Positions 19,685-55,135 are shown, numbered from the stretch's first letter. The stretch is DNA of 55,598 nt from Alphaproteobacteria bacterium (GCA_009785175.1 WQWV01000003.1:1-55598), one strand, 5' to 3'. The notes: generated by a model from the sequence alone, not told the origin. Translations and numbers: made by a program.

Positions 19685-19715
19685 TTGACAAAACACTTCC
19701 GGGGGGGGGTAAGTT
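19685..19715 (+). promoter_or_regulatory. Promoter with G9 tract in spacer
   Basis: TTGACA-AAACACTTCC-G9-TAAGTT; spacer 19 bp. Confidence 0.65.
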
Positions 19716-19770
19716 TGTCTATAGATTCGCAATAAAGCGATTCGCAAATTCTAGAAAAAGGGTATTAAAA

Positions 19771-20352
19771 ATGAAAAACGGTGTTGTGAAAAAAGCTCTT
19801 CTTATGGTCATTGTCGCCGCTATGGCAATCGCCAGCGTCGGGTGTGCGGAGAGCAAAGCAAAGCGAATCACCCAAAAAGAGCTTGACGAATGGGGGCTTA
19901 CTTTCGAAGAGGTCAGCGATATCGCCGCGGCACGGGCTTATATATCCATGGACGATGGCGATCCCTGCCTTAAGCTTGAAAGTGTATACTGCGAATATAG
20001 CGGTGAATATCTTGGGGGCAACGGCGGGCGCAAGTTCGGAGATCACAAAGAGTATGAAGAATGCTATCAAGAATTCATAGACCCTATCATGCGCGAATAT
20101 GAAAAGATAAAAAGCAAAGTGTATCAGGATTTCGAAGAGAGGGAAACGGATTGCGGCACCTCAATATGCTGGGGCAGGGCGACGATATATTTAGACTATA
20201 TAGTCAATTCCAAGGGAAAGAGGCTTTATGTGTCGGAACGCGGTCCCGATCGGGATTACAGAAAGGCCTATGGAGGCGAACGGGCGTATGCACGTCGCAT
20301 AGCCGCGCAGCAAAGGGCGCTTGCCGAAGCTACCAAAGGCGTGCGTAAGTAA
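19771..20352 (+). CDS. Hypothetical lipoprotein
   Basis: Basic N-terminus, hydrophobic core, lipobox-like ASVGC. Confidence 0.75.
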   Translation: MKNGVVKKALLMVIVAAMAIASVGCAESKAKRITQKELDEWGLTFEEVSDIAAARAYISMDDGDPCLKLESVYCEYSGEYLGGNGGRKFGDHKEYEECYQEFIDPIMREYEKIKSKVYQDFEERETDCGTSICWGRATIYLDYIVNSKGKRLYVSERGPDRDYRKAYGGERAYARRIAAQQRALAEATKGVRK

Positions 20353-20360
20353 AATAAGAT

Positions 20361-20386
20361 ATCCCCGGTTCGTCGGGGATTTTTTT
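20361..20386 (+). terminator. Intrinsic terminator
   Basis: ATCCCCGG-TTCG-TCGGGGAT followed by a T run. Confidence 0.85.
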
Positions 20387-20439
20387 GCTTTGCGTCCGAG
20401 CAGATTTTATGCTATAATTCCATTCGGAAGAGAGGTAGT

Positions 20440-20988
20440 ATGAAGTTCAAACTCATTTATTCCGGAGAGCTGAAAATCAATCCCAAGAAACGCTCGAAGC
20501 ATATCAATGAAATCCGAAAAGTATTATCGCCACAACTAAAACGCCTAACTGAAATCACCCCTTATTCAATCATCAAAGAAAAGCTTATGAAGAACGAGCG
20601 CGGCGTGCGCTGTATCGGCGGGGTCAAATACTTTCCCATCATTACGCCGGAATTGAATTTGCTTGCGGAGCTTGACATACAAATCCTGCATCCGGAACTT
20701 TTGGAAACGCCGCGCGCGGATATAGACAATCGGCTGAAGACATTGATGGACGCGCTCAAGAGGCCGCAGTCGTCGCACGAGGTTTGCGACGATAACAAAG
20801 GCAAGATGATGTATACGCTTCTTGACGACGACCACATGGTCAAGGGGTTGTCGATCAACACCACACACCTTCTGTCCTCGGATTACAAGGACGGGACGCA
20901 CCCGGACGATTACAAATTGCTTGTGATAATAACTGTTGCAATCAAGGCTTCGAAGGGGACGCCGGATAATTTGGCTGTGATTGTTTAA
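20440..20988 (+). CDS. Conserved hypothetical protein with a RusA-like motif
   Basis: DIDNRLKTLMDAL and DDD resemble the RusA DxDNxxK...D...DD acidic catalytic pattern. Confidence 0.6.
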   Translation: MKFKLIYSGELKINPKKRSKHINEIRKVLSPQLKRLTEITPYSIIKEKLMKNERGVRCIGGVKYFPIITPELNLLAELDIQILHPELLETPRADIDNRLKTLMDALKRPQSSHEVCDDNKGKMMYTLLDDDHMVKGLSINTTHLLSSDYKDGTHPDDYKLLVIITVAIKASKGTPDNLAVIV

Positions 20989-21090
20989 CGCCTCGTGATT
21001 TCGTGCGCTGGCGTCGTCATCTGCGGGCAGTCCAAATCCTCATGGAGGCAAGAAGTCCATTGCGGTTTGTCCTCCCTTGCTTCCTAGCCA

Positions 21091-21633
21091 TCATCGCGAA
21101 CTGACGAGGCTTGACAAGCTCGTTTTAGATATGTTGATTAGGGCGGAGATTTTATCCCAGAGCTCGGCCTGCTCCCAATCTTTGACATACCGTTTGAAAT
21201 CGAGCGTTTTCAGCGTTTCAAAATTCACCCATTCGGCGCGGCTGCAATACTTTTTTTCGTCCTCGGTCGGAGTGGCGCAATCGCGCGAGCCGCCAAGAAT
21301 CTCGACCGAGTATACAAGCGATACCTGGTGAAAATGTTTGCTGTTCTTATGGCTTGTGAAAGATGTGGTGTAGGCGCCCATGATTTCGCCGGGTTTGACA
21401 TCGTATCCCGTTTCCTCTTTGAATTCGCGTATCAGCGCGTCGAGATGATCCTCGCCGACCTTCATTCCGCCGCCAGGAAAATCATAGCCGCCGAACATAG
21501 GAAGGATCAGAATCTTGCCGTCGCGAATCGCTATGCCGATTATGGCGTCGAGTTTTTTTTCAAGCTTGTCGAGTTCGATTTCGATTAACGATCCATCAAT
21601 CTGGCGCGATAAGATCTTTTTGCTGTCGGTCAT
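21091..21633 (-). CDS. NUDIX hydrolase
   Basis: Nudix box PGGGMKVGEDHLDALIREFKEETG. Confidence 0.9.
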   Translation of the reverse strand: MTDSKKILSRQIDGSLIEIELDKLEKKLDAIIGIAIRDGKILILPMFGGYDFPGGGMKVGEDHLDALIREFKEETGYDVKPGEIMGAYTTSFTSHKNSKHFHQVSLVYSVEILGGSRDCATPTEDEKKYCSRAEWVNFETLKTLDFKRYVKDWEQAELWDKISALINISKTSLSSLVSSR

Positions 21634-24600
21634 ATCCTTACCTCGATTCCGTTTATTTGGGAGAACAGAGAGAGAGTAGCGGTGGTCAACGCGTATTTTA
21701 GGGGCAGTGCCACCACGGCCTCTTTGCCCCCCTGTTGCACGATTAAATTTACCGCGGTCGAACCGGAGGGGAGCGAGGCGATGACTTTGCTTATCGCGCC
21801 GATCGAATCCTTGTTCGCGACGACGATATTTATCTCGCCGGCAAGGGGTTTGTCGACGCGAACGGGCTCGACGCTGGCGGTGAAAAAGCTCATGCCCCTA
21901 TCGCCGTTTTTCGCGTCGCAGAAGACCGCAACCACGCCGCCGGGTGTCAAAGATTCCTTGTCGATCATGCCGTATGTGCGTTCGGATAAAAAGAGCGAGG
22001 TCGAGCCGGATTTGTCGGAGAGGTTGAGGTTGTAATACTTCTTGCCCATCTTGGAAGTTTTGGGGATCACCTTGTCGAGTTGACCCACGACGGTAATCTT
22101 GCCGTCGGATTTTATATCCTTCATGTCGGCGATCGGCGTGGCGCGCATCATTTTCAATATATGCTCGTATGCGTCCATCGGGTGAGCGGAGAGATAGAAT
22201 CCAACGACCTCGACTTCGCGCTCGAGCAATTCCTTCGGCGTGAACGGCACCGCGTCGGCAAGCTTGATATCATCGCGGGATTCGATTTCGTCGGTCGCGA
22301 AAAGCGAGATCTGGTTCGCCTCTTTGTCCCTTGCTATCGCGCCCATTTGGGCAAGAATATAATCAACGTTCGCTATCATCTTAGCGCGGTTGGGCTCGAG
22401 GCTGTCGAACGCGCCGGCGGACGATAAACTTTCCAACATCTTGCGGTTGACAAGTGTGCGGTCGACGCGGCCTATGAAATCGGCGATCGAAGCGAAGGGG
22501 CCGTTCGCGTCCCGCTCGGCAACTATGCCGTTGACAACTCCTATGCCCACGCTTTTGCAACCGGCAAGGGCGAATCGCACCGCGCCGTTTTCGACCGAGA
22601 ATTCGGAAAACGATTTGTTTATATCGGGCGGAAGAACCGTCAGGCCGTTCTTGCGGCAATTATCCACGAACATGGAAATCTTGTCCGTATCGCCCATGTC
22701 GTAGGTCATGCTTGCCGCCATGAACTCGGCGCGGTAATGCGCCTTGAGATACGCCGTCTGATATGAAATCCAGCCATAGCACGCCGCGTGCGCCTTGTTG
22801 AATCCATAGTTCGCGAATTTCACCATCAAGTCGAAAATCGCGTTCGACGTGCGATCGTCTATTTTCGAGGTTTCGCTGCAGCCCTTAACGAAGACCGCGC
22901 GCTGCTTGTCCATTTCCTCTTTGATTTTTTTACCCATGGCGCGGCGCAAAAGGTCGGCTGAGCCAAGCGAATAGCCCGCAAGTTGGCGACCCATTTCCAT
23001 CACCTGCTCCTGATAGACCATGATGCCATAGGTTTCGCGCAATATCGGTTCCATCATCGGGTGAAGATAGTCGATCGCCTCGCCGCGTTTGTGGCGGCAA
23101 TAAAGCGGAATGTTGTCCATCGGCCCCGGGCGATAAAGAGCGACAAGCGCGAACAGGTCCTCGAGCCGTGTCGGCTGCATATCGCGGATCGTGCCGACCA
23201 TGCCGCCGGATTCAAGCTGGAACACAGCGGGGGTGTCGCAGGCGCGAATCATCTTGAACGTCGCCTCGTCATCAACGGGGATACGTTCGATATCTATTTT
23301 CACACCGTGGTTTTTATGGGCGAAGTTTACAGCCTTCTTGATGATCGAAAGAGTTTTCAAGCCAAGGAAGTCGTATTTCACAAGGCCCGTGTCCTCGATG
23401 TATTTCATATTATACGCGGATGCGGGAATGTCCGACTTCTCGTCTTTGTAAAGCGGTGTCAATTCGGTCAGCGGCCGATCGCCGATAACCACTCCTGCGG
23501 CATGCAGGCCGGCGTGGCGATACAGGCCCTCGAGCGGAATCGCTATGTTGATAAGCGCGCGGTATTGGTCGTCGGATTCGACAAGCTCCTTGAAATCGCG
23601 TTCGTATTTCAAAAGATTCGGAATCGTGTTCGGAATGTCCTCGCCTTGAAAATTATTAAGCTTGAACGGAATCAGTTTCGCAAGGTCGTCGCATTTGCCA
23701 TAGGGCATGTGGAGCACGCGGCCCACGTCCTTTATCACCGCCTTGGGCTGAAGCTTTCCGAACGTGATGATTTGACCCACCGCGTCGGTGCCGTATTTTT
23801 GCTGGACATAGCGGATCACCTCGTCGCGGCGGTCTTGGCAAAAATCGATATCGAAGTCGGGCATGGACACTCGCTCGGGGTTTAGGAACCGCTCGAAGAG
23901 AAGGCCGAAGCGAATCGGATCAAGGTTGGTGATCCCAAGCGCCCAGGCGACGATCGATCCTGCGCCGGAACCGCGGCCCGGACCCACGGGAATATCGTTC
24001 TTCTTCGCCCAGCCGATAAAGTCCGCGACTATTAAAAAGTAGCCCGAAAAGCCCATCTGTGTAATGACGCCAAGCTCGTAGCTCATGCGGTCTAGGTATT
24101 CCTTGCGCGTAGTTTCGTCGGTTATGTTTTCCTCGGCGAATCGCTGCTGTAATCCGGCGCGGGAATTTAGCATGATCAAATCGTTCTCGTCCATGTCCCG
24201 GCTGACGTGCGGCATAAGCGGTTTCGACTTCTTGATTTTGAACGAGCAGCGGCGCGCGATCTGGAGCGTGTTCGCGACGGCTTCGGGAAGGTCGGCGAAA
24301 AGCTCGGCCATCTGGGTCGGAGTTTTGAAGTAATGCTCGGCGGTTTCGCTGCGCCTATCGGGGTCGTTGAAGTGTTTGCCGGCTATTATACAAAGAAGAA
24401 TGTCGTGCGCCGTGTGCATATCGCGCGTGTCGAAAAAGCATTCGTTCGTGGCGACAAGCGGTATGTTATGTTTGTATGCAAGCTCGATGAAAAACGGCTC
24501 GGTCTTGTTTTCGGCGTGAAGGTTGTGGCGCTGGAGCTCGATATAAAAATTGTTTGCGAAGGCGGTATTGATTTTAAGCGCGATTTTCTCGGCGGCCTCG

Positions 24601-25046
24601 AATTTTTCCTCGGCGGCCAGGATTCCTATCGCCCCCTTGATGCCGCCCGAAAGAGCGATTAGGCCGTCCGCGTTTTCGGCGATGTAATCGAACGGAGCGT
24701 TCAGGGGCGTGCCGGGAATCTTGCCCGTATTGGCAAGCGATGAGATCTTCAGGAGATTTTTATAGCCCGTTTCGTTTTTTACCAGAAGCACCAGTTGTGA
24801 TAGCGGCAGGGTATCGCCGAAGTTCACGTCAAGCTGGATGCCGACTATCGGCTGAACCCCGGCGGCGTATACATACTGGCAGAATTCGGGCACGCCGAAC
24901 ATGTTGTTCGTATCCGTGATCGCAACCGCCGGCATTTCAAGCTCGACGCATTTGGCGGCAAGGTTCGGGATGCGAAGCGCCCCCTCGGCCAGGGAATAGG
25001 CCGTATGGTTTCGAAGGTGAACGAAGCGGGGCGTCGTGTCCACCAT
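21630..25046 (-). CDS. dnaE: DNA polymerase III alpha subunit
   Basis: FVHLRNHTAYSL, GPGRGSGAGS, FERFLNPERVSMPDFDIDF, YGFNKAH. Confidence 0.99.
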   Translation of the reverse strand: MVDTTPRFVHLRNHTAYSLAEGALRIPNLAAKCVELEMPAVAITDTNNMFGVPEFCQYVYAAGVQPIVGIQLDVNFGDTLPLSQLVLLVKNETGYKNLLKISSLANTGKIPGTPLNAPFDYIAENADGLIALSGGIKGAIGILAAEEKFEAAEKIALKINTAFANNFYIELQRHNLHAENKTEPFFIELAYKHNIPLVATNECFFDTRDMHTAHDILLCIIAGKHFNDPDRRSETAEHYFKTPTQMAELFADLPEAVANTLQIARRCSFKIKKSKPLMPHVSRDMDENDLIMLNSRAGLQQRFAEENITDETTRKEYLDRMSYELGVITQMGFSGYFLIVADFIGWAKKNDIPVGPGRGSGAGSIVAWALGITNLDPIRFGLLFERFLNPERVSMPDFDIDFCQDRRDEVIRYVQQKYGTDAVGQIITFGKLQPKAVIKDVGRVLHMPYGKCDDLAKLIPFKLNNFQGEDIPNTIPNLLKYERDFKELVESDDQYRALINIAIPLEGLYRHAGLHAAGVVIGDRPLTELTPLYKDEKSDIPASAYNMKYIEDTGLVKYDFLGLKTLSIIKKAVNFAHKNHGVKIDIERIPVDDEATFKMIRACDTPAVFQLESGGMVGTIRDMQPTRLEDLFALVALYRPGPMDNIPLYCRHKRGEAIDYLHPMMEPILRETYGIMVYQEQVMEMGRQLAGYSLGSADLLRRAMGKKIKEEMDKQRAVFVKGCSETSKIDDRTSNAIFDLMVKFANYGFNKAHAACYGWISYQTAYLKAHYRAEFMAASMTYDMGDTDKISMFVDNCRKNGLTVLPPDINKSFSEFSVENGAVRFALAGCKSVGIGVVNGIVAERDANGPFASIADFIGRVDRTLVNRKMLESLSSAGAFDSLEPNRAKMIANVDYILAQMGAIARDKEANQISLFATDEIESRDDIKLADAVPFTPKELLEREVEVVGFYLSAHPMDAYEHILKMMRATPIADMKDIKSDGKITVVGQLDKVIPKTSKMGKKYYNLNLSDKSGSTSLFLSERTYGMIDKESLTPGGVVAVFCDAKNGDRGMSFFTASVEPVRVDKPLAGEINIVVANKDSIGAISKVIASLPSGSTAVNLIVQQGGKEAVVALPLKYALTTATLSLFSQINGIEVRI

Positions 25047-25054
25047 GCGCGCAC

Positions 25055-27760
<2,706 letters not shown>

Positions 27761-27975
27761 TATTCTCTTCCTTGTTTTTTTCTTTTTATCCTACTATAAT
27801 ATAGTGATTGAATTCAAGGAAATAAAGTGCAACTTGTGAAATCGGGCGCCTACTCGGTTTTCAAGCAAAATAAAACGCTCGTAGCGCTAAGTACGCTTGC
27901 CTTTTATTTTACTTTCCAAACCTTCGTAATCACCTTGATTTGACAAGTTGTGTGTTTTTCCCTATAAGTAATGGA

Positions 27976-28437
27976 ATGAACGATGAGAAATATATGAAAA
28001 TGGCTTTGCGCGAGGCGGCGAAGGCGGCGGCGGCGGGTGAAATTCCGGTCGGGTGTGTGATCGTTTCGGCCTCTGGCGAGGTTTTGGCTCGGGCTCATAA
28101 TCAGGTCGAAAAGCGGGCAAATTCAACGCTTCATGCCGAGATGGTGGCGATGGGGCGCGCGATGAAAAAGGTGGGTGAAAAATACCTTATGGGTTCGACG
28201 ATTTACATTACGCTCGAGCCTTGTCCCATGTGCACTGCCGCGATTTCGTGGGCGAAAGTAGGGCGCATAGTTTATGGCGCCAAAGAAGACAAGAACGGCG
28301 GGCTGTTCGTGTTGGAACACGCGCGTCATTTTTTCAAGCCGAAGGTTGTGGGGGGAATTTGCGCGGAGGAATCTTCTGAGATGTTGAAGGAATTTTTCAA
28401 ATCTATACGGGGTAAGAATTCGTCATTCCGGGCTTGA
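27976..28437 (+). CDS. tadA: tRNA adenosine deaminase
   Basis: GEIPVG, HAE, TLEPCPMC. Confidence 0.9.
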   Translation: MNDEKYMKMALREAAKAAAAGEIPVGCVIVSASGEVLARAHNQVEKRANSTLHAEMVAMGRAMKKVGEKYLMGSTIYITLEPCPMCTAAISWAKVGRIVYGAKEDKNGGLFVLEHARHFFKPKVVGGICAEESSEMLKEFFKSIRGKNSSFRA

Positions 28438-28483
28438 CCCGGAATCCATACTTACTGGATACCGGCTCGAAGGCCGGTATGAC
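28422..28483. repeat. REP-like inverted dimer overlapping the tadA stop
   Basis: GTCATTCCGGGCTTGACCCGGAATCCA...TGGATACCGGCTCGAAGGCCGGTATGAC. Confidence 0.88.
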
Positions 28484-28489
28484 GGGGGA

Positions 28490-29182
28490 TTATACGAGTG
28501 TGCGGCGGATAAACGGCATATCCTTCTTGTGATTCGAATACACCCGTTCGCGCAGGAAAAATTCGAGGATTTTTAGGGCGTCGTTCAGGTCTTCGTCGGT
28601 CGGATTCGCGGGCGGCGTTTCACTCCAGATCGCGGGGATTTTGAAAAGCCGGTCTTTGTAAATCTCGCCGGCGGCCGCGCATACCGCGTGTCCTGTTTTC
28701 GGCGAGATATAAGCCAGATTTTCCGTGCAACCTGTGGCATTGCATTTGGTCAAATCCATCTTGAATCCAAGCTCGTCCAACAATTCCCGCTCCCATATAA
28801 TATAATTTTCGAGCGTGGGATTCAAAAGCAATATATTGGTGTTTTCATATAGTTTCCAATGGGGTTCGGATTCCGGGAGCGCGTCCGTCAAGACCGCAAG
28901 CGCGCAGGCAAGCGCGGTCGATTTTTTTATGTCGGTCAGAATCTCGGTCGCGACCTGTTTTTTAAGTTCCAAATCGAAGAAGCCCATCTGGCCCTCGGTG
29001 CGGGCGGTGAAACGAACCGCGACCTGGTTCCCGGTTTGTAGGGTTGCGAGTTTTTTCCTACTTTGACCTCCTTTGACAAGCGAAGTAATAAGTCCGTGCG
29101 AGGCTGTCAAAACACCAACCGTCGCGTCGGTCTCGCCGAATTTTTTCACGCCCAATACTATGCCGGAATCTTCCCACTTCAT
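28490..29182 (-). CDS. recO: DNA repair protein RecO
   Basis: [17 protein letters not shown]...[16 protein letters not shown]...[10 protein letters not shown]. Confidence 0.93.
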
Positions 29183-29246
29183 TTTAGCTTTACTTTCACC
29201 CGATTTAATTATATTCTCTCCCTTCGGGATTACAAGGAGAATTACC

Positions 29247-31469
29247 GTGGCGGAAAACATCAAACCACTGCAGCTTAAAGACGCTATATCCGAACGCTAT
29301 CTTTCGTATGCCATGTCGACCATAACCGCGCGGGCGCTGCCCGATGTGCGCGACGGGTTGAAGCCTGTGCACCGTCGTATTTTATATACCATGCGGCAGT
29401 TGCATTTGGATCCGGCTAAGGGCTTCAAAAAATCAGCCCGAGTCGTGGGCGACGTCATGGGTAAATACCACCCGCACGGCGATGCGTCCATCTATGACGC
29501 TATGGTGCGTTTGGCGCAGAGCTTTTCGGTTCGCTATCCGCTTGTCGAGGGGCAGGGGAACTTTGGAAACATAGACGGGGATTCCGCCGCCGCGATGCGA
29601 TACACCGAGGCCAAGATGACGCCGGCGGCCATGGGGATCCTTGCTGGTCTTGACGACGACGCGGTCGATTTTATCGCCAACTATTCCGGCGAGGATTCGG
29701 AGCCTGTGGTCATGCCCGGAGCTTTCCCGAACCTGCTTGCGAACGGCACGAACGGTATTGCCGTCGGAATGGCGACCAACATTCCGCCTCATAATATATT
29801 AGAAGTGTTGGACGCGACGGCGGCGCAGATTGCAAATCCTGCTATCACTGTTTCCGAGCTTGTGAACCATGTGCGCGCTCCCGACTTTCCCACAGGCGGA
29901 ATTATCGCAAATACGCGCGAGGAGATCGAGGAGATCTATGCTTCTGGCCGCGGCTCGTTCACTGTGTTTGCGCGTTGGGAGCGCGAGGATTTGGCCTATT
30001 CCAACTATCAAATCATTATCACAGAAATTCCATATCAGGTTCAAAAATCCCGCCTTATCGAGCGAATCGCCGAGCTTATGGGCGAGGGGAAGTTGCCCCT
30101 TGTCGGCGACGTCCGGGACGAATCGGCCGAGGATATTCGCGTTGTGATCGAGCCCAAGAACCGCACAGTCGAGGCGGACGCGGTGATGGCGCAGCTTTAT
30201 GCCAATACCGAGCTTGCAACACGTTTCGCGCTTAACATGAACGTGCTTGACTCGAAGGGCGTGCCGCGGGTCATGAACTTGCGCGAAGTCATCGCCGAAT
30301 ACATCGCGCATCAGGTCGAGGTTGTGCGGCGTCGCGCTTCGTTCGCGCTTGGCAATATCGAGCGGCGTTTGGAAATCCTTGGCGGTTTGCTTATCGCATA
30401 TCTGAACATAGACAAGGTAATCAAAATTATCCGCGACAACGACGAGCCGAAGCCCATCTTGATGGCGAAATTCGGTTTGACCGAAATCCAGGCGGAATCC
30501 ATTCTTAATATGCGTTTGCGTCAGTTGCGAAAACTCGAGGAGATGGAAATAAGGGCCGAGGAGGCGAAGCTTTCCAAAGAACGGTCGCGGTTGCAAAATT
30601 TGTTGAAATCCGACCGAGCGAAGTTGAAACAGGTCGGCGACGAAGTGTCCTCGATGCGTTCGCTTTTCGCCAAGGACAAAGCGCTTAGCGAGCGACGCAC
30701 AGAGATGGACGAATCGTTTGCCGAGATGGCCAGCGTGCCCTCAGAAGCCCTTGTGCCGCGCGAACCGATCACAGTCGTAATCTCGCAGATGGGCTGGATC
30801 AAAGCTTTGAAAACACACGTCGACGTGGCCGGGCCGTTCGCGTTCAAGGAGGGCGACTCGCTTGCTTACGCCTTCCATGCGTTCACAAACGACAAGATAA
30901 TATTCATGACCGACAAGGGGCAATCGTTCGCAATCGACGCGCACAAATTACCCACAGGCCGCGGGCATGGCGACGTGATACGAATCCTTGTCAATATCGA
31001 CGCTTCGTCCGACCTGGTTCGCGTGCTTGTCGCCGGGGACGAGGACGTGCTTGTCGTGTCGAACGCCGGCTATGGTTTCGTCGTGGCCGCGTCCGACTTG
31101 GTCGCCACCACAAAGCTTGGAAAGCAAATAATGAACCTTGCGGACGGGGATAAATTCGCCGACGCGGTCGTGGTGCCCCAGGGCGCGAACATGCTTGCCA
31201 TCATCGGAACGAACCGCCGCCTGCTTGCCTATCCTTTGTCCGAGATTCCGAAAATGACGCGCGGCAAAGGCGTGATTTTGCAGAAATACAAAGAGCGCGG
31301 AGTCCACTATTCCGACGCCGTAGCATTCGCAAAGCGCGAGGGAATTTCGTTCGCAAACGGCGCTAAGAATTACGTCGTGCAGGATATTTCCATGTGGCTT
31401 GGCAAGCGTGCGGACGTTGGGCACATGCCGCCGAACGGGTTTTCCAAATCGAATAAATTCGTGGCTTAG
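29247..31469 (+). CDS. parC: DNA topoisomerase IV subunit A
   Basis: [42 protein letters not shown]; about 740 aa, no GyrA box seen; GTG start with SD AAGGAG. Confidence 0.93.
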
Positions 31470-31624
31470 TAAAGAGCGAAGCCACCAACGCCGGCAGGGA
31501 GGAAGCGGTCTCTTGGAGCGCGCACGCGCAATAGAGCCCGCGAACTAGGTTTTATTTTCCTTTCTATAGCGTCCCCTGTTTCGGCAGGGGATTTTCTTTG
31601 TGAATATTGCGTTTTACCATATTA

Positions 31625-31680
31625 ATATGCTAATACGCTAGCGTGATAACATGATAGCGTGATATCATGATAGCGTGATG
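31625..31680. repeat. Degenerate 8-bp tandem repeat x7
   Basis: ATATGCTA ATACGCTA GCGTGATA ACATGATA GCGTGATA TCATGATA GCGTGATG. Confidence 0.75.
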
Positions 31681-31825
31681 AAATTTGAAGGGCTCGGGCG
31701 CAGCTTCCCCCTTCCCCACCCGCCAATCTCCATTCTTCGCTAAAGTTTCGAAGGACAGGGGGCGTGGGGGCGCGGCGGTCATGCGCGCAGCTCGCAAGCT
31801 CGCTGAAGGCTTCTATATACTTCAC

Positions 31826-31854
31826 TGGATTACCCGGTCGAGTCGGGTAATGAC
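31826..31854. repeat. REP-like repeat (solo variant)
   Basis: TGGATTACCCGGTCGAGTCGGGTAATGAC. Confidence 0.75.
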
Positions 31855-31871
31855 AGGGGGGGGAGAGCGAC

Positions 31872-32564
31872 TTAATTACGCGAGGTGTCGGACTTTATGC
31901 TATGCAAAAGCGCGGCTTGCTTTTCGCGCAACCGAAACTTGTTGTTTTTGATATCGTCCACTATGGCAACGGCGCCGCCCAGTGTTTTCGAATAGGTGCT
32001 ATGGATTTCGTGCTTATGCCTGATCTGGATATTATACCCGCCTTTGGGATAGGGGCAGATGTTTTTAAGGCGTGGTTTTTTCCGCTTGTTGCGCGATGGT
32101 TTCGATGACAGCGTGCGGTTTATGCGGGCAAGTTCCAAGATCAGCGGCGCGCGCAAATTTTTCATCTGTTCGCGGCGTTGGCAGTCGATACATTTTTCCG
32201 TTTTTTTATCAAGAAAAGATTGGGCTTCCTTAGGATAAATTTTGCCGCATTTTTTGCAAAGGAAAAGCCATTCGGTGTGGGACGCGACAACCGGATCGCG
32301 ATCGTTTTCATCAAGTTTGCAAAGAGCTACGAGGCTGCCTTGTTCAATGCCGGATCGCATTCTTGCCTCGGCTTGTTCCGCTCTTTCGTTATTATAACAA
32401 TCAAGGCACTGTGTAGTATTGCGTGCGACGACTTTGTAGGCGTTGACCTTATACGGCGGTTTGTTGCATTTCGTGCAATGGGCAAGCCAATAGGTGCCCC
32501 CTATTTTTTTTATAAACCTAATATGACCCTGGATAAGTCCGGGATATATTTTGTATTGCTTCAT
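31872..32564 (-). CDS. Phage-like protein with two Cys4 repeats and a C-terminal AP2-like domain
   Basis: WLAHCTKCNK...TTQCLDC and WLFLCKKCGK...TEKCIDC, then KNICPYPKGGYNIQIRHKHE...KTLGGAVA; promoter TTGACA-17-TATCAT on the minus strand. Confidence 0.6.
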   Translation of the reverse strand: MKQYKIYPGLIQGHIRFIKKIGGTYWLAHCTKCNKPPYKVNAYKVVARNTTQCLDCYNNERAEQAEARMRSGIEQGSLVALCKLDENDRDPVVASHTEWLFLCKKCGKIYPKEAQSFLDKKTEKCIDCQRREQMKNLRAPLILELARINRTLSSKPSRNKRKKPRLKNICPYPKGGYNIQIRHKHEIHSTYSKTLGGAVAIVDDIKNNKFRLREKQAALLHSIKSDTSRN

Positions 32565-32620
32565 ATTCCTATGATATGACGATTAGATATTTTTGTCAAT
32601 GTTTATTCGGCAAGGACTTT

Positions 32621-32643
32621 TGGCGGAGCGGGTGGGGTTCGAA
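32621..32643 (-). other. tRNA 3'-end fragment (Ser-like), not a complete tRNA
   Basis: Minus strand reads TTCGAACCCCACCCGCTCCGCCA (T-loop to CCA); the 5' T-stem strand and the rest of the tRNA are absent. Confidence 0.65.
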
Positions 32644-32665
32644 GAGCGCGCAGCGAACAAAATAC

Positions 32666-32692
32666 TTGACAAGTCGTGGGGGGGGGTAAACT
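32666..32692 (+). promoter_or_regulatory. Promoter with G9 tract in spacer
   Basis: TTGACA-AGTCGT-G9-TAAACT; spacer 15 bp. Confidence 0.65.
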
Positions 32693-32723
32693 TGAATTGT
32701 CAAACAAACAAAGGAGAAAAAAC

Positions 32724-33365
32724 ATGGGATTTGAAAACATAGTTAAGAACAATATAACGATGGATTATATTTTGAATAATTCCGACGAGGTTTTGGATAT
32801 AATGCTTAGACCTCAATATAACATATTGATGCGAGGACTTCAGGGTAAGGACAAATATGAAGTGCAGGAAGCTAAAGAGCGAATAAGCGAGATGGATAAA
32901 AAAGACGCCGCCATATTCATGGCCTATGCCAATATGCACAAACTGTTTGGAACGCATGACAGCTTTAATGAAGTATTAAGCCGACACTATGAAACCAAAT
33001 ATAAAAAAGACTCCTATTATAAAAATTCAAAAACGACATTCGAAGATTTCTTGGCCGTGCCCGATAATAAAAAAATGGTCCTGGACATACTTGGCAAACA
33101 CGTCGGGGAAATCAATATCATTTCTTTGGATTACAAAAATTATAGCAATGAAGGTCGCAGCGGATATTCTCAGGCGAGCATAGACGCTACTTTGGATGCA
33201 TATAAATCATTTCCAACCGCAAAGTCCATGGACGTTGCACAGAAGCTTTCGATAATGAAAGTGGAACAGCCGGATATGTTCAAACAGCTGGAGCAAGAAG
33301 TTGCGAAAGGACTTTCGGCGAAAGATGTGGCCAAAATCAAGGCAGGCGATAGCAGCAGAGGCTAA
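32724..33365 (+). CDS. Hypothetical protein (AT-rich)
   Basis: SD AAGGAG; 213 aa; no recognisable motif. Confidence 0.75.
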   Translation: MGFENIVKNNITMDYILNNSDEVLDIMLRPQYNILMRGLQGKDKYEVQEAKERISEMDKKDAAIFMAYANMHKLFGTHDSFNEVLSRHYETKYKKDSYYKNSKTTFEDFLAVPDNKKMVLDILGKHVGEINIISLDYKNYSNEGRSGYSQASIDATLDAYKSFPTAKSMDVAQKLSIMKVEQPDMFKQLEQEVAKGLSAKDVAKIKAGDSSRG

Positions 33366-33367
33366 GT

Positions 33368-37616: not shown

Positions 37617-37646
37617 TTGACAAAATTTTATGGGGGGGGGTAGGTT
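37617..37646 (+). promoter_or_regulatory. Promoter with G9 tract in spacer
   Basis: TTGACA-AAATTTTAT-G9-TAGGTT; spacer 18 bp. Confidence 0.65.
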
Positions 37647-37677
37647 ATGTCCAATAAGTTAACAAAAGGACTAACGA

Positions 37678-38388
37678 ATGAAACAGAAAACCAAACGTGT
37701 TGCCCGCGGCGTTATGAAATCCGTTGTCGCCATGATAGCGCTTGCCATACTTGTCGCCGGGTGCGGCAAGGGCGAGAAAGTCGAGGAGGAGGCCGCGCCT
37801 GTTGCCCCGAAAATTACTCCGGCAATGGTTGCCGAGGCCTTGCGGAGCTATATACTTACGATGGAAAAAGACGGCAACAAATACGGTTTCAACGCCTATA
37901 TCACAAACGAGAAGACGGGCAAGCGCTATAACGGCCTTGCCAACGATTTCGAATATGATTCCGAGGGCTCGGACGAGTTCTTTGATATGGCAGAAAAAGA
38001 GGGCGAAGAAGCGTTTCATTGCGCCGATGCCGGTAAGAACGAATTCGACTGTATCCGCATAGAGGCCGGGAAACAGAAAAACAAGCGTTTCGTTTTCAAG
38101 CCGATGGAATGGCCGAAAGAAGGCCGATGCGCCAAAGCGTCGCTTGTCGACGAGAAACACAACTATTTCGAAGAGCTATCTAACCTTATCGAGGACAATC
38201 CCGACTTCCTTACCAAAATAACCGCGTGCGGCGAGATTCGGGGCATGGGATCCAGCGCCTATGCCTGGCTTACCGGATACAGCAAGATAAAGGCCGAAAA
38301 CTATACCAATTTCGCGGGGCTTGCCGCAGAGAGAATCAAGGTGGACGCCGATTCCGCGCGGGCTTTGATTAGGAAGTATAGCCGTTAG
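37678..38388 (+). CDS. Hypothetical lipoprotein
   Basis: Lipobox LVAGC after a hydrophobic stretch; SD AAAGGA. Confidence 0.8.
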   Translation: MKQKTKRVARGVMKSVVAMIALAILVAGCGKGEKVEEEAAPVAPKITPAMVAEALRSYILTMEKDGNKYGFNAYITNEKTGKRYNGLANDFEYDSEGSDEFFDMAEKEGEEAFHCADAGKNEFDCIRIEAGKQKNKRFVFKPMEWPKEGRCAKASLVDEKHNYFEELSNLIEDNPDFLTKITACGEIRGMGSSAYAWLTGYSKIKAENYTNFAGLAAERIKVDADSARALIRKYSR

Positions 38389-39407: not shown

Positions 39408-39797
39408 ATGACTTTGCAAGGCCTATACGATGCTTGGGATATGCTTCCGTCGGACGACGAGAGGCTCGAGTATCTTGTCGCGCTTGGAGGGCAGCTTGCC
39501 CCGATGACGGCCGAAGACAAAACCACTGAGAACGCCGTGCTTGGGTGCGCGGCGAACGTATGGATCGCGCCCAACTATGCCGGGGACAAGCTTGACTTTG
39601 CTTTTGCATCGGACGCTAAGATCGTTTCCGGGCTTTTGTTCATACTTTCACTTGTTTTCAACGGGAAAACCCGCGCCGAGGCGTTGGAGGTCGACGCGGA
39701 CGCCGTGTTCAAGCGGCTTGGCCTTGACGACATACTTACATCGAACCGAATCGTGGGCGTGGCGTCGGCGGTAGAGAAAATAAAAAACTCTTTATAA
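39408..39797 (+). CDS. sufE: SufE family sulfur acceptor
   Basis: ERLEYLVALG, VLGCAANVW, SDAKIVSGL, LTSNRIVG. Confidence 0.9.
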   Translation: MTLQGLYDAWDMLPSDDERLEYLVALGGQLAPMTAEDKTTENAVLGCAANVWIAPNYAGDKLDFAFASDAKIVSGLLFILSLVFNGKTRAEALEVDADAVFKRLGLDDILTSNRIVGVASAVEKIKNSL

Positions 39798-43195: not shown

Positions 43196-44506
43196 CTATC
43201 TTCCTTTTTGTTTCTTTATTTTATCAAGTTCTTTTTGTCCCCGAATCGTCGTGTCGCCGCCCTTGACAAGGGAAAGCGCGAAGCGGGCGTAATAAAGCGT
43301 AGTTCCGACGGTTTTTGTCGACACTCCACCCCCCCCCATGGCGCGCGCTATTTCGATCGCCGAGGCCTTTCGTCCCGAGCCGTAGGCAAGCTCGAGCGCT
43401 TGGGCGTATCGCGGGCTTAGGTATTTGAAAAGCTCCTTGTCCGCCTCGAAGGTTTCGGGGGTTATTATGTCGGTGTTCGAGCAGTCGGGTTTCGATGCGG
43501 CATAATCCGCAGCCCCTTCGTCCAACTCTTGGCCAAGGCCGAACTCGTCGTATCTTTTCCTTATGTGGAGCAGGGCTTTGGAAATTACCGAGCGTATAGC
43601 TTCGGCCTTCTTGGCGTCCGAAAGGTTTCCCCCGTATCCCGCCTCGTCGCCCATTGCGGCGTAATCCGTGCGGCCGTTCCGGATGTGGAGCGAGAGCAAC
43701 TTTTGTTCGTATTGAGAGAGGAACGGGAAGAAACGTTTCATGGTCTTGAAATCGGAGAGGTCAAGCACGCCGGAGCCGTTTGCGTCCTGTTTCTTGTATC
43801 CGCGCATTTCATCGAAGGCGAGGCGTATTATTTGGGGAATGCGGACGCGCATGTGCTGCGACATTTTCCTTCGTTCGGTATAGTCGGCGATCTTACGGAA
43901 GTCGTATTTTTTATCAAGCAGCCCGTGGTCGATGAGAGCGGCTTGGATTTGGCTATAGGTAAACTTCTTTTCGAACCTTAGCTTGACGACAAGGCGGTAG
44001 AGGTCGTTGTCCACCAGTTCAAGGTATTTACTTAGGCCGGCGTATTCCACCTCGGTGTATTTGACAGAGGAGGAGAAGCGGTTTTTTTGCCCGGAATTCT
44101 TCGCGACCATTTCGCGCACATTGTCGGCGGTAAGGCCGAATTTCTCTAGGATAGAATTGTTTTTTTCGACCGGAGCGGCAAATCGGGCTGCGGCGATTCC
44201 TATGTTTCGCGCAAGGTGGAGGTCGAGGTTTGAAATGCCATTGGCGTTATAGCTTTTCAGCGCGTCGACTATGTTTTTTCGAATATGCTTTTCAAATGCG
44301 GCGCCAAGCGAGGCTCCCTTCGGCGTTCTTTGCGATATCAAGTTCGAGAAATGATCGCGTATAGCGTCGAGGATTTCGTCCCGCCTTTTGCCAAGGGTCG
44401 GATACCTTGCGCGGGTGAAAAAGCGGCCTTTGAGCTTTGATTCGACCTCGAGATATTCGCGGCGCAGGCCGGAGAGAAAAAGCGAAGTCTTGGCCTGGTC
44501 GAACAT
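43196..44506 (-). CDS. Hypothetical protein with a sigma70 region 2-like N-terminus and three sigma region 4-like HTH repeats
   Basis: Last repeat YLSPRYAQALELAYG...SAIEIARAMG...STKTVGTTLYYARFAL is sigma4-like; two weaker repeats precede it; IVDALKSYN segment. Confidence 0.55.
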   Translation of the reverse strand: MFDQAKTSLFLSGLRREYLEVESKLKGRFFTRARYPTLGKRRDEILDAIRDHFSNLISQRTPKGASLGAAFEKHIRKNIVDALKSYNANGISNLDLHLARNIGIAAARFAAPVEKNNSILEKFGLTADNVREMVAKNSGQKNRFSSSVKYTEVEYAGLSKYLELVDNDLYRLVVKLRFEKKFTYSQIQAALIDHGLLDKKYDFRKIADYTERRKMSQHMRVRIPQIIRLAFDEMRGYKKQDANGSGVLDLSDFKTMKRFFPFLSQYEQKLLSLHIRNGRTDYAAMGDEAGYGGNLSDAKKAEAIRSVISKALLHIRKRYDEFGLGQELDEGAADYAASKPDCSNTDIITPETFEADKELFKYLSPRYAQALELAYGSGRKASAIEIARAMGGGGVSTKTVGTTLYYARFALSLVKGGDTTIRGQKELDKIKKQKGR

Positions 44507-44510
44507 GGGC

Positions 44511-45086
44511 TTACCTTGCGGTTTGCGGTTTTGTATATTTTCGTTCGGCGGTGTGCTGTTCCATCGGTTTGTAAATCTTCGCGATGGCGCCAAGGCGGAA
44601 CGTTATAAAGTTGCGAATCAGACCGTCGCGCTCCTCGTTATACGACTTAAGTATTTCGTCAAGGCGGGTTAGCATGCAATTCTTGAAATCATCAATGTCG
44701 CGGGGGCGTATGTCATGGCGCTTTACAAGGGTCGATATGAATTGCCCGTAATATCCGGCCACCGTGTTAAGCAAATATTTTTGCATGGCGTTGAGGATTT
44801 CCGTTTGCTGTTCGATTTCGTTTTTGTCTTCCTTGGTTTCGGTCGCTATGAGGAGTTCCTCTCCGTCGTGCTTTTCAAGCTTAAGGCTGTTGTTCGCCAT
44901 TTTTATCAACTCGCGACGCCGTTCGGGGTCGAGCTTGCGGGCGCGAAGGAGGCGGAGTTCGTTTTCGTTGTCGATAAAGTGCCGCTGGATTTCAAGAAGT
45001 TCGGCGTCAAGCCGGCCGCTTGCAAGCAGCCTTGCGTAATCGGTGGTTTTGGTTTTGGCAATGGCCGCTGTTGTGTGTTCTGTCAT
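44511..45086 (-). CDS. Hypothetical protein with a sigma70 region 2-like segment
   Basis: YGQFISTLVKRH...DIDDF...LDEILKSYNEERDGLIRNFITFRLGAI; ATGA overlap with pgm. Confidence 0.55.
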   Translation of the reverse strand: MTEHTTAAIAKTKTTDYARLLASGRLDAELLEIQRHFIDNENELRLLRARKLDPERRRELIKMANNSLKLEKHDGEELLIATETKEDKNEIEQQTEILNAMQKYLLNTVAGYYGQFISTLVKRHDIRPRDIDDFKNCMLTRLDEILKSYNEERDGLIRNFITFRLGAIAKIYKPMEQHTAERKYTKPQTAR

Positions 45087-46735: not shown

Positions 46736-46948
46736 ATGCAAGCACAAATAATGAGCAAAGTGGAAAACTACCTTAGGTCCAAATTCGGGAATCAGGACAT
46801 ACGCCTTGTCGGTGCGAAGACCGATCCGAGCATGGCCGAGGTCTATATCGGGAGCGAGTTCGTAGGAACGCTTTACCGCGACGAAGACGACGGGGACGTG
46901 AGTTTCGACTTTAACATGTCCATATTGGCCGAAGACCTTGACATCTAG
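46736..46948 (+). CDS. DUF3126-like small protein
   Basis: YLRSKFGN...AEVYIGSEFVG..YRDEDDGDVSFDFNMSILAEDL matches the recalled family pattern. Confidence 0.75.
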   Translation: MQAQIMSKVENYLRSKFGNQDIRLVGAKTDPSMAEVYIGSEFVGTLYRDEDDGDVSFDFNMSILAEDLDI

Positions 46949-46973
46949 CGCCGGACTTTGTAGAATTGCGTTC

Positions 46974-47044
46974 GGCGGGCGCGGGAGCGACGCAACGGGT
47001 CAGAGCCGGAAGGCAGCAGCCCACTTTGTTTCCCGCGGGTCGCC
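46974..47044 (+). ncRNA. ffs: Signal recognition particle 4.5S RNA
   Basis: Helix 8 motif GGGTCAGAGCCGGAAGGCAGCAGCCC within a long hairpin (GGCG...GCGGGA / TCCCGC...CGCC); promoter TTGACA(46938)-17-TAGAAT. Confidence 0.9.
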
Positions 47045-47060
47045 ATTATTTATTTGTCCG

Positions 47061-53163: not shown

Positions 53164-53284
53164 AACTTGACTTTACCTTAATCCTCTCATATACTCCCGC
53201 ACGTCAACTGGGAGCGGCCATTGGCGCCAAATTAATCCGCTAAGCCGTGGCCTACGCCGCGCCAACCAAAAAAGAATATACAAT

Positions 53285-54970
53285 ATGACCAAAAAAAATG
53301 TCGCCACCATGGCAATCGACAGCAACTTCACGACCGGTGAAAACTTCGCGGAACTCTTCGCCGAATCAGAATCGAAAAACAAGAAACTCGAGGGCTATTC
53401 CACAAAGGGAACCGTCGTCGCGGTATCCGACGAATACGTCGTCGTCAACGTCGGCCTTAAGTCCGAAGCTCATATCCCCCTTAAAGAATTTAGGAACGAA
53501 GAAGTAAAGGTCGGCGACATCGTCGACGTATATGTAGAGCGTTATGAAAACGCCGAAGGCCTTATGCTTGCTTCGCGCGAACGCGCCCGCAAAGAAGAAT
53601 TCTGGCGCGAGATGGAATCGCAAATCGCCGACAACAAAATCCTCAAGGGAGAAATCGTCGAGCGCGTGCGCGGCGGATTCACCGTCGACCTCAACGGCCT
53701 TATGGCTTTCATGCCTTCGTCCCAGCTTGACGTCGTGCCGGTCAAGGACATCACCCCCTATCTCAACAAACCCATGGACTTCAAGGTCATCAAAGTCGAC
53801 AAGCTTCGTTCGAACCTTATTGTTTCCCATCGCGCAATCATGGAAGGCGACCGCGAATCCAAGCGCGCGGAAATCCTTTCCAAAATCAAGGTCGGCGACG
53901 TTATGGAAGGCGCAATCAAGAACATCACCGACTATGGCATGTTCATCGATTTGGGCGGCATAGACGGCCTTCTCCACATCACGGACATTTCGTGGAAGCG
54001 CGTTTCCAACCCCGCGGAAATCTTCACCATCGGTCAGAAATTGAAAGTGAAAGTAATCCACTTCGACATAGAAACCGGCCGCATCAGCCTTGGCATGAAG
54101 CAGCTTGAGAACGACCCGTGGACTTCGGGCTTCGGCTTTGAAATCGGCAAAACCTATACCGGAAAGGTTACCAACCTTACCGACTATGGCGCGTTCGTCG
54201 ACCTTGGCAACGGGGTCGAGGGCCTTATCCACGTATCCGAGCTTTCCTGGACCAAGCGCAACGTCGCGCCGAACAAAATCCTTAGCAACGGAGAGGAAGT
54301 CAAGGTCATGGTGCTTGAAATCGACATGGACAAGCGCCGCATCAGCCTTGGGTTGAAGCAGACCAAGCAGAATCCTTGGGCCGAGTTCGCCAGCAGCCAC
54401 GAGGCCGGCGACATCATTGAGGGCGAGGTCAAGAACATCACCGAGTTCGGCGTGTTCATATCCCTTGGCCACGACATGGACGGCATGGTGCACGTGTCCG
54501 ACCTTAGCTGGGACAAGACGCCCGATGTGGCCGTCAAATCATTCGCCAAAGGCCAGGTGGTCAAGGCCAAAATCCTTGAAATCGACACGGACAAAGAGCG
54601 CATTTCGCTTGGCATCAAGCAGCTTGAGAAAGACGTGGTCGCCGAGTCAATCGGAAACGTCAAGAAGGGCCAGGTGGTCACAGCCCACGTCATCGATACC
54701 CGCGACGACGGCGTTGTGGTCGAAGTCGACGGAATTCAGGGCTTCATAAAAGCGTCCGAGCTTTCCCGCAACCGTTCCGAGCAGAAGCCCGAGCGTTTTG
54801 CGGTCGGCGAAAAAATCGACGCGAAAATCGTCGGAATCGACACCGCCGGCAAAATGCTTTCGCTTTCCGTCAAGGCATACGAAATCGACGAAGAGAAGAA
54901 GCTTGCGAAGGAATACGGGTCGTCCGATTCCGGTGCGTCGCTTGCGGATATTCTTGGAGCCAAGCGTTAA
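53285..54970 (+). CDS. rpsA: 30S ribosomal protein S1
   Basis: Repeated S1 domains (KNITDYGMFIDLGGIDGLLHITDISW; RISLG.KQ). Confidence 0.98.
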   Translation: MTKKNVATMAIDSNFTTGENFAELFAESESKNKKLEGYSTKGTVVAVSDEYVVVNVGLKSEAHIPLKEFRNEEVKVGDIVDVYVERYENAEGLMLASRERARKEEFWREMESQIADNKILKGEIVERVRGGFTVDLNGLMAFMPSSQLDVVPVKDITPYLNKPMDFKVIKVDKLRSNLIVSHRAIMEGDRESKRAEILSKIKVGDVMEGAIKNITDYGMFIDLGGIDGLLHITDISWKRVSNPAEIFTIGQKLKVKVIHFDIETGRISLGMKQLENDPWTSGFGFEIGKTYTGKVTNLTDYGAFVDLGNGVEGLIHVSELSWTKRNVAPNKILSNGEEVKVMVLEIDMDKRRISLGLKQTKQNPWAEFASSHEAGDIIEGEVKNITEFGVFISLGHDMDGMVHVSDLSWDKTPDVAVKSFAKGQVVKAKILEIDTDKERISLGIKQLEKDVVAESIGNVKKGQVVTAHVIDTRDDGVVVEVDGIQGFIKASELSRNRSEQKPERFAVGEKIDAKIVGIDTAGKMLSLSVKAYEIDEEKKLAKEYGSSDSGASLADILGAKR

Positions 54971-54993
54971 GGTTGTTTTCGAGTGTAAATCGA

Positions 54994-55023
54994 ATCCCCT
55001 GGGCAGCCGGGGGATTTTTTTGT
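54994..55023 (+). terminator. Intrinsic terminator after rpsA (duplicated at 55435)
   Basis: ATCCCCTGGGCAGCCGGGGGATTTTTTTGT. Confidence 0.85.
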
Positions 55024-55027
55024 TTTC

Positions 55028-55090
55028 GTCATACCGGGCAACGACCCGGTATCTAGTCAGCTTGGATTCCGGCTCGGGGGCCGGAATGAC
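55028..55090. repeat. REP-like inverted dimer
   Basis: GTCATACCGGGCAACGACCCGGTATCTA...TGGATTCCGGCTCGGGGGCCGGAATGAC. Confidence 0.88.
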
Positions 55091-55104
55091 GGGATATTTT
55101 TCTC

Positions 55105-55135
55105 TTGACAAAATGATGGCGGGGGGGGGGAGATT
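55105..55135 (+). promoter_or_regulatory. Promoter-like element with G10 tract
   Basis: TTGACA-AAATGATGGC-G10-AGATT; downstream GTCTATAGA shared with the copy at 19685. Confidence 0.55.

Follow-up and report, generated by a model that had tools for sequence, protein, structure and literature searches.

Putative poly-G promoter module in front of unrelated orphan genes of a small alphaproteobacterial genome, a candidate phase-variable system

The stretch of DNA analysed here (the window, 55,598 nucleotides) is contig 3 of an alphaproteobacterial genome of 1.136 Mb, which is assembled in 58 contigs, has a guanine-plus-cytosine (GC) content of 52.4%, and is an estimated ~93% complete. The window contains four sites, at 19685, 32666, 37617, and 55105, in which a TTGACA -35 box is followed by a G tract and a -10-like hexamer (Table 1). 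A preliminary description of the window had listed these sites as a dispersed promoter family; their coordinates and sequences are confirmed, as are the stretches CTTGACAAAA and GTCTATAGA that sites 1 and 4 have in common. The four downstream genes are unrelated orphans (ORFans), without a Pfam family and without mutual similarity. The pattern TTGACA-N3-14-G7+ has four matches in the window against 0.01 expected, and none of 100 shuffled sequences gave four. Judged from sequence, the four sites are predicted to be copies of a lineage-specific sigma-70-type promoter module that stands before at least 52 unrelated genes. Positions elsewhere in the same genome are given as Cn:position, where n is the contig; G001 is a sister genome, and L-numbers are fetched loci of relatives.

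Table 1 Predicted promoter modules of the window, the genes behind them, a control promoter, and further G/C tracts
Feature	Position	Strand	Description
Promoter module 1	19685..19721	+	-35 TTGACA 19685-19690; linker 10; G9 19701-19709; -10 TAAGTT 19710-19715; spacer 19; GTCTA box 19717-19721
ORFan gene 1	19771..20352	+	193 amino acids (aa); N-terminus signal-peptide-like and ending in Cys (lipoprotein-like by sequence only)
Promoter module 2 (short class)	32666..32692	+	-35 32666-32671; linker 6; G9 32678-32686; -10 TAAACT 32687-32692; spacer 15
ORFan gene 2	32724..33365	+	213 aa
Promoter module 3 (main class)	37617..37653	+	-35 37617-37622; linker 9; G9 37632-37640; -10 TAGGTT 37641-37646; spacer 18; GTCCA box 37649-37653
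ORFan gene 3	37678..38388	+	236 aa; lipoprotein-like N-terminus
Promoter module 4	55105..55141	+	-35 55105-55110; linker 10; G10 55121-55130; degenerate -10 (G)AGATT; GTCTA box 55137-55141
ORFan gene 4	55168..55413	+	81 aa; Cys-rich
Internal control promoter	46938..47050	+	Ordinary TTGACA-17-TAGAAT; signal recognition particle (SRP) RNA gene 46971-47050 begins 5 nt later (Rfam)
G9 tract	10355..10363	+	Inside a mosaic of dispersed intergenic repeats, 10188-10604
C9 tract	12405..12413	-	Inside the family-2 glycosyltransferase gene 11770-13035, residue ~208; reads TPPH
G8 tract	31856..31863	+	Directly 3' of a repetitive extragenic palindromic (REP)-like palindrome ending AATGAC; likewise at C7:10511 and C53:493
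G9 tract	43329..43337	-	Close to the 3' end of the 465-aa ORFan gene 43196-44593; reads MGGGGVS

Genome-wide, the family comprises 52 copies rather than four (TTGAC[AT], 6-10 bases, G8-10, TAnnnT), all with a homopolymer of at least eight between the -35 and -10 boxes, as at all four window sites. A tract was assigned to the promoter class when TTGAC[AT] lay 3-12 bases 5' of it. The strict pattern TTGACA-N3-12-G8-TA has 49 matches in the genome, against none for a reversed-pattern control. The tract abuts TA in 51 of the 52 promoters: the first base after it is T in 51, the second is A in 51, and the sixth is T in 48. The main class, with a linker of nine bases between -35 box and tract (n = 30), has the consensus CTTGACAAAA-tctt-c, G9, TAnntT, followed 0-2 nt on by GTCYA. 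Further 3', an A-rich leader with AAGGA precedes the ATG, and the start codon lies a median of 38 nt from the tract in the 45 cases with a ribosome-binding site. GTC[ACT]A is present within 12 nt after the -10 box in 36 of the 52 tract promoters and in 4 of 112 ordinary ones (p = 2e-19); therefore, the tract class has an extra element that is absent from generic promoters. Two other roles for this region were rejected: an antisense promoter using downstream TGTCNA as its -35 box finds no -10 box in the consensus, and a palindromic operator at the start site is present in few promoters.

The G-tract promoters had been said to differ from ordinary TTGACA promoters in spacer length, and the difference holds throughout the genome. 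The five ordinary promoters named in the preliminary description (12850, 15672, 16989, 17585, and 46938) all have 17-bp spacers, and ordinary 17-bp promoters precede S16, L28, and SRP RNA. The last of these, at 46938, ends 5 nt before the RNA gene, an internal control for the reading of TTGACA-17-TAGAAT as a promoter by this organism. Tract-free TTGACA-N-TAnnnT sites peak at 17 bp (60 of 173, or 40 of 87 with a better -10 box), a spacer found in one of the 52 tract promoters (Fisher p = 2e-7). From TTGACA to TA, the tract promoters have spacers of 15 bp in 12 cases, 16 in 3, 17 in 1, 18 in 28, 19 in 7, and 20 in 1. Counted in Gs, 31 of them are one step from the optimal 17 bp (those with 18 and 16 bp), 19 are two steps away (15 and 19 bp), one is three steps away (20 bp), and one is at zero. 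The -10 hexamers of the 15-bp class (TAGAAT, TAAAAT, TAAACT) are better than those of the 18-bp class (TATTYT, TAAGTT, TAGATT).

The proteins encoded downstream of the 52 promoters have a median length of 164 aa, and an all-against-all BLASTP yielded one weak pair. Genes were called with a home-made codon-usage caller, and some of the downstream open reading frames (ORFs) picked are doubtful, having a long gap or lacking a ribosome-binding site. At E <= 1e-3, no Pfam family was found for 40 of the 52 proteins (4 of 4 in the window and 36 of 48 elsewhere), against 18 of 48 other window genes (p = 1e-4). The downstream genes have a median GC content of 49.6%, compared with 53.0% for other genes (Mann-Whitney p = 6e-9). 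Pfam-bearing products comprise two DapB-like proteins, cytidylate-kinase-like, radical SAM, AIR-synthase-like, GNAT, SPFH, HNH, and Ldh_2 proteins, a 226-aa sigma-region-4 protein, and one weak phosphatase match. The cytidylate-kinase-like protein is a second, divergent one, the canonical copy being encoded elsewhere in the genome; the two DapB-like genes are sole copies and score weakly. By eye, ~10 of the 52 proteins have signal-peptide, lipoprotein-like, or membrane N-termini. A phage origin of the downstream genes was rejected, as only 6 of the 52 have a PHROG match at 1e-5.

Of the window ORFans, genes 1 and 4 have neither a Pfam nor a PHROG match, and genes 2 and 3 have no Pfam family and find only themselves among 5.8 billion proteins, searched among those of similar length. 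The ESM Atlas look-alikes of two window ORFans, gene 1 included, reach at most 0.80 and are uninformative. Five relatives, two of them of the same genus, contain no match to genes 1 to 3 or to the Ldh_2 and SPFH genes, and none of seven tract genes searched has a homologue in relatives. Scans of metagenomes from other samples gave no match to ORFan gene 3 and one locus, 44% identical, for alr; neither these scans nor the protein searches with genes 2 and 3 turned up another strain. We conclude that the module-driven genes are, by these searches, apparently species-specific and mostly ORFans.

Two of the sites carry traces of their history. Site 3 lies in a 981-bp interval (37506-38486) between alr and lpxK, which consists of hairpins, the module, and the ORFan. 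The relative represented by locus L011 has retained the order kdtA-sufE-lpxK-alr-murEF, with contiguous matches for alr and lpxK. Because the two genes abut there and are 981 bp apart here, the unit of module and ORFan looks inserted. Site 4 had been described as a G10 promoter, and ten Gs are indeed present, followed by AGATTC. However, the promoter at C6:35056, which is identical to site 4 over the 57 bases 5' of the tract, reads G9 + TAGATTC; site 4 is therefore a decayed copy, in which a T-to-G change of the first -10 base turned G9 + TAGATT into a run of ten. Promoters resembling module 2 are present at C10:27441 and C32:7105. A palindrome or tRNA fragment was said to lie 5' of each site. 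Palindromes resembling terminators of the preceding genes or REP-like hairpins are present at sites 1, 3, and 4, whereas no tRNA or tRNA fragment was detected upstream of site 2.

The promoter tracts belong to a larger set. G/C runs of 6, 7, 8, 9, 10, 11, and 12 bases number 70, 5, 11, 121, 25, 2, and 1, respectively, and the 160 tracts of at least eight amount to 141 per Mb. This excess of long runs, with a sharp mode at nine, almost no G7, and a dearth of intermediate lengths, is of the Campylobacter type. Sorted with the home-made gene caller and simple rules, the tracts comprise 52 G-strand promoters, 7 C-strand promoters (TTGACA, 1-6 bases, C9-12, 1-8 bases, TAnnnT), ~62 coding tracts (41 '5-prime' and 21 internal, a split in which the '5-prime' class is noisy), and 39 in dispersed repeats or other non-coding DNA. 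The 101 tracts outside promoters, in ORFs or repeats, have the same length spectrum. Tracts within 600 nt of contig ends number 21 of 160, compared with 9.8 expected (p = 8e-4). The window has eight tracts of at least eight (16 overlapping G8 matches against 1.5 expected), and the four G8-9 tracts other than those of the modules start at 10355, 12405, 31856, and 43329.

Coding tracts read GGG or PPP. They are located in eight glycosyltransferase (GT) genes (GT61 three times, GT8 three times, and GT2 twice), in genes for a TupA-like ATP-grasp protein, several radical SAM/SPASM proteins, two short-chain dehydrogenases, and a periplasmic binding protein, and in signal-peptide regions of ORFans. 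These are typical contingency genes. One of the GT2 genes, missed by the gene caller, is that of the window; it is in frame at the assembled tract length of nine (421 aa) and truncated at eight or ten (289 or 273 aa). We scored the frame of the 58 non-promoter tracts for which the assembled length, or a length one G longer or shorter, places the tract in an ORF of 150 aa or more. Ten are out of frame, two of these in doubtful repeat ORFs. G9 tracts are in frame in 43 cases and out in 4, compared with 5 in and 6 out for tracts of other lengths (p = 0.0017). The tracts of surface-structure genes include both states, again as in Campylobacter. A Pfam domain resumes part-way just after the tract in a GT61 gene (profile positions 59-136, C26:8724) and in a GT8 gene (72-250, C33:4387). 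Of the five 5' coding tracts examined in G001, one is in frame as assembled, whereas the other four are not and would require one G to be gained or lost; four of the five belong to one family of small genes with a hydrophobic N-terminus. TA follows 31 of the 62 coding tracts, compared with 4% of G5-6 runs, and AT precedes tracts even inside ORFs; a TAA or TAG directly after the tract would halt one wrong frame at once.

Some tract-bearing genes have additional features. Loci L080, L082, L084, and L090 of G001 are paralogous small genes with a hydrophobic N-terminus and a G9 or G10 run ~20 nt after the ATG, and three of the four are out of frame at the assembled length. The ORFan that contains tract 43329 has a weak sigma-70 region 4 match and no homologue in 20 relatives; its G9 run adds the glycines of MGGGGVS at the expected helix-turn-helix turn. 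At C1:74421, a glutamate-racemase-like gene has a G9 run 7 nt 5' of what is probably its true start (MKIGIFDSG); the run may double as a ribosome-binding site. Two tracts per gene, the first within the promoter spacer and the second near the beginning of the reading frame, are present at C15:20402 with C15:20664, and at L074 in G001; such genes would be under double control.

A further group of tracts lies in dispersed repeats. The mosaic repeat family represented at 10188-10604 (also C1:148895, C18:12447, C24:8114, and others) has 14 copies and 4 in the opposite orientation. It contains a hairpin of terminator type, a -10-like stretch rich in AT, a central G8-G10 run between short GC hairpins, and a conserved TAGCTATAAATC; the central run is on the G strand whichever way the repeat is oriented. 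Rfam at gathering thresholds, applied to the window, found SRP RNA alone and no match for the mosaic repeat. The tracts of the family are G8 in 3 copies, G9 in 11, and G10 in 4. Two of four near-identical repeat pairs differ solely by one G, one of them with 159 of 159 flanking bases identical; such pairs could be true repeats or co-assembled strain variants. REP-like palindromes (CCGG...CCGG type, ending AATGAC or TATGAC) often directly precede a G8-G10 run (window 31813-31863; C7:10511, C53:493, C44:140, C36:7301, and C54:317). A tandem heptamer-like repeat with the variants GATAGCGT and GATATCAT (window 31636-31680; C7:1, C18:7432, C53:2802, and C17:19223) belongs to another dispersed repeat with a G8-G10 tract, often at contig ends.

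Sequencing runs that contain this DNA are exclusively termite-gut metagenomes. Two runs contain 99% of the words sampled and seem to be a single data set, of ~8x depth, that is stored as contigs. A search with the MurE-MurF fusion protein of the window identified as relatives gut-derived metagenome-assembled genomes labelled Alphaproteobacteria or Rickettsiales, and genomes of the same order have sizes of 0.5-1.1 Mb. Exact G9 runs number 121 here, 107 in G001, and 31, 22, and 22 in three genomes of a sister genus; one genome of another family has 15, and the other 35 relatives searched have 0-11. Among the relatives' G9 runs listed, the next base is nearly always T. The module is present in relatives' loci with a GC content of 26-34%, and the fetched loci of the genera that keep it range from 26 to 56% GC. 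The strict pattern was also matched, 1-3 times per genome, in 5 of 400 alphaproteobacterial genomes from outside the order. BLASTN of the G001 tract loci against this genome gave no alignment that spanned a tract.

We consider slipped-strand phase variation, of the type described for porA and the Treponema tpr genes, the best reading of the tracts and a reasonably probable one, at an unusual scale. The module would be formed by CTTGACAAAA, a linker of 9 (or 6) bases, a non-template G9 run abutting a TAnnnT -10 box, GTCYA where the start site is expected, and, after this start box, a short, ~25-nt leader that carries an AAGGA ribosome-binding site. During replication, slipped-strand mispairing would add or remove one G at high frequency and thereby change how far the -35 box lies from the -10 box. 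By analogy with known systems, a main-class promoter, with 18 bp at G9, would reach the optimal 17 bp at G8 and become stronger, and a short-class promoter, with 15 bp at G9, would do so on reaching 16-17 bp at G10-G11. Each gene's transcription would be adjusted or switched reversibly and independently of the others, and slippage in coding tracts would shift the reading frame. How often the tracts slip, where transcription starts, and how tract length affects expression are inferred here. Of the earlier proposal of a reusable switch module that keeps accessory genes mostly off and flips them stochastically, the module itself stands, as a stereotyped design in 52 copies with off-optimum spacers before unrelated accessory or ORFan genes. 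Stochastic switching has indirect support, from the run spectrum, the out-of-frame coding tracts, the one-G differences between copies, and the frame states in G001. Promoters with 18-bp spacers may well be active rather than mostly off.

In Neisseria meningitidis, a poly-G tract between the -35 and -10 boxes of porA and a poly-C tract at the -35 box of opc set transcription by their length (PMC7864442). The sites described here, known from sequence alone, likewise have a homopolymer inside a sigma-70 promoter. Unlike porA and opc, which are single loci with tracts of ~9-11 and no common module, they are part of at least 52 promoters of one stereotyped design, in which the tract abuts the -10 box, with two spacing classes and a GTCYA box. 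Treponema pallidum has a small genome with several promoter poly-G tracts (tprE/G/J, tprF/I, tprL, and tp0126), there in front of surface-protein genes. The tract of tp0126 lies between the -35 and -10 boxes, with an optimum of 17 bp, and tprE/G/J are active only at eight Gs or fewer (PMC7864442). In a near-clonal isolate, the tprL tract is 81% G9 with lengths of 7-11 present; G8 is active and G10 near background (PMC7864442). This pattern of tp0126 and tprL would match the main class here, with 18 bp at G9 and 17 at G8. The geometry of tprL differs from that of the module, as its start site lies 4 nt after the tract, and T. pallidum has far fewer loci, mostly of one paralogous family, in contrast to the unrelated ORFans here. 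Campylobacter jejuni has a modal length of nine, 64-95% of tracts at 9-10, and a dearth of G7 and G8 (303, 18, 0, and 4 loci for G5, G6, G7, and G8); insertions are favoured at G8-9 and deletions at G10-11, and the mode is attributed to mutational drivers (PMC3401435). The mode of nine, the near-absence of G7, the presence of tracts in glycosyltransferase and other surface-structure genes, and the on and off frames are similar here. C. jejuni has 11-29 tracts per genome (PMC3401435), with 29 loci in NCTC11168 (PMC4965091), whereas this genome has 160 in 1.14 Mb, about a third of them in promoters, and encodes MutS and MutL. One study of N. meningitidis predicted 115 phase-variable genes (PMC5084427).

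Several observations weigh against slippage as an explanation of the tracts. The genome encodes MutS and MutL; even so, switching is not precluded, as tracts of meningococci switch despite the presence of mismatch repair (PMC3401435). Contigs mapped on 19600-39599 cross the tracts at 19701, 31856, 32678, and 37632 gap-free at the assembled lengths, although minority lengths are invisible in contigs. The indels listed in this mapping are at 28470 and 32701 only, both away from tracts, and the latter probably stems from the similar promoter region on contig 32. At 8x depth, the G10, G8, and out-of-frame calls could include assembly errors. An orthologous-looking promoter in two species of another genus has a linker of nine and G9 in both, with the linker sequence diverged. 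In two further genomes of the order, the 15-bp class is more frequent than any other form, yet it needs two more Gs to reach 17 bp. Forty-seven of the 52 promoter tracts are exactly G9, with one G8 and four G10. The G tract lies on the non-template strand and abuts the -10 box in 52 promoters, against 7 in the opposite orientation, and a mere slippery spacer requires neither the constant strand nor the abutting position. Slippage alone does not account for the strand and position of the tract, the two spacing classes, the GTCYA box, and the TA and AT flanks. Because of these four features, a fixed element read by a factor or through DNA structure stays a live rival, although we rate it as unlikely. 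In it, G9 would be a rigid A-like spacer, a surrogate for an extended -10 box, or a factor site acting with GTCYA, in a separate promoter class for accessory genes, and slippage would be incidental noise. The constant tract position, the uniform length, and the discrete spacing classes without a continuum are as such an element would have them, as are the retention of the module across genera and the T after G9 in relatives. In oligo(dG) runs, the helix is under-wound and each base pair takes up less length, so that 18 bp could behave like 17; this geometry runs the wrong way for the 15-bp class. The mode of nine recurs in ORF and repeat tracts, where promoters play no part, the reading frame is broken at some coding tracts, and tract length varies between repeat copies. 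The genome yielded just two sigma factors with region 2 (687 and 316 aa) and no candidate reader of the G tract. Slippage is expected of every G9 run, and length variants would therefore arise regardless. Since G9 is also the mode in proven hypermutable systems (PMC3401435, PMC7864442), its uniformity alone is no argument for a fixed motif. The best explanation of the uniform length is that poly-G tracts have their mutational equilibrium there.

A broader form of the fixed element, which we find harder still to credit, is a lineage-wide cis-code, G9-TA. It would consist of TTGACAAAA, a non-template G9 run abutting the -10 box, the GTCYA start box, and a fixed 18- or 15-bp geometry, would be read by a factor or DNA structure, and would control newly acquired or newborn ORFans. 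If so, a single switch system would govern about a tenth of the 1.1-Mb genome, coding tracts included, and new genes might acquire copies of the cassette itself. Copying is also the core of the proposal that the module is a mobile, or formerly mobile, or copy-pasted promoter cassette, which lands before newly acquired genes or arrives together with them. This is compatible with either a switch or a fixed element, and we regard it as improbable. BLASTN across the tract clusters 28 of the 52 promoters, and subsets have 57-60 further upstream bases in common (C24:2654, C55:163, and C5:8255; site 4 and C6:35056). The driven genes are mutually unrelated and species-specific, the unit at 37506-38486 lies between alr and lpxK, which adjoin in L011, and GC-rich hairpins flank the cassettes. 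As read from the sequences, TTGACAAA recurs imperfectly, in inverted orientation, as the downstream TTTGTCYA; a palindromic GTCYA-N0-2-TRGAC is present at only 2 tract promoters. The similarity is limited to ~40-60 nt, which are also functionally constrained (-35 box, tract, -10 box, and ribosome-binding site). Correia elements of Neisseria are short, dispersed, promoter-bearing miniature repeats that supply promoter parts to neighbouring genes. Unlike these, the module has no recognised terminal inverted repeats with target duplications and no longer conserved body. That the tracts are a sequencing or assembly artefact or a product of chance is next to inconceivable: coverage is low, and single-base errors occur in homopolymer calls, but the match counts in the window and genome far exceed their controls, the sequence context around the tracts is constant, and other assembled genomes of the order contain the same module.

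Slipped-strand phase variation would be a mechanism of a known kind. As far as the literature was searched, its scale, the standardised module with a spacing rule and a start box, and the tie to ORFan cassettes in an uncultured, reduced gut symbiont are new, and no report of such a poly-G promoter set in this type of organism was found. If the tracts slip as expected, this is the densest poly-G switch repertoire found in print (141 per Mb), and about a third of its tracts use a single standard promoter design to act on transcription. The accessory genome of a reduced, host-associated commensal can then be dominated by contingency loci, which are known chiefly from pathogens. The set lends itself naturally to asking how sigma-70 promoter strength depends on spacer length and G-tract structure, why nine is the preferred length, and how ORFans obtain promoters.

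The window has three further features of interest. Ten consecutive small ORFs on the same strand (99-162 aa) occupy 4353-8478 directly after rpoC, an ORFan array with no Pfam family and no G tracts. The protein encoded at 33368-36352 on the minus strand (994 aa) has two sets of Mur ligase domains and is apparently a MurE-MurF fusion; its identity is 55-63% in 10 of 11 fetched loci and 32% in the eleventh. A leucine-rich-repeat protein (LRR_6) is encoded at 17660-18979 behind an ordinary 17-bp promoter, and its eukaryote-like domain may function in host interaction.

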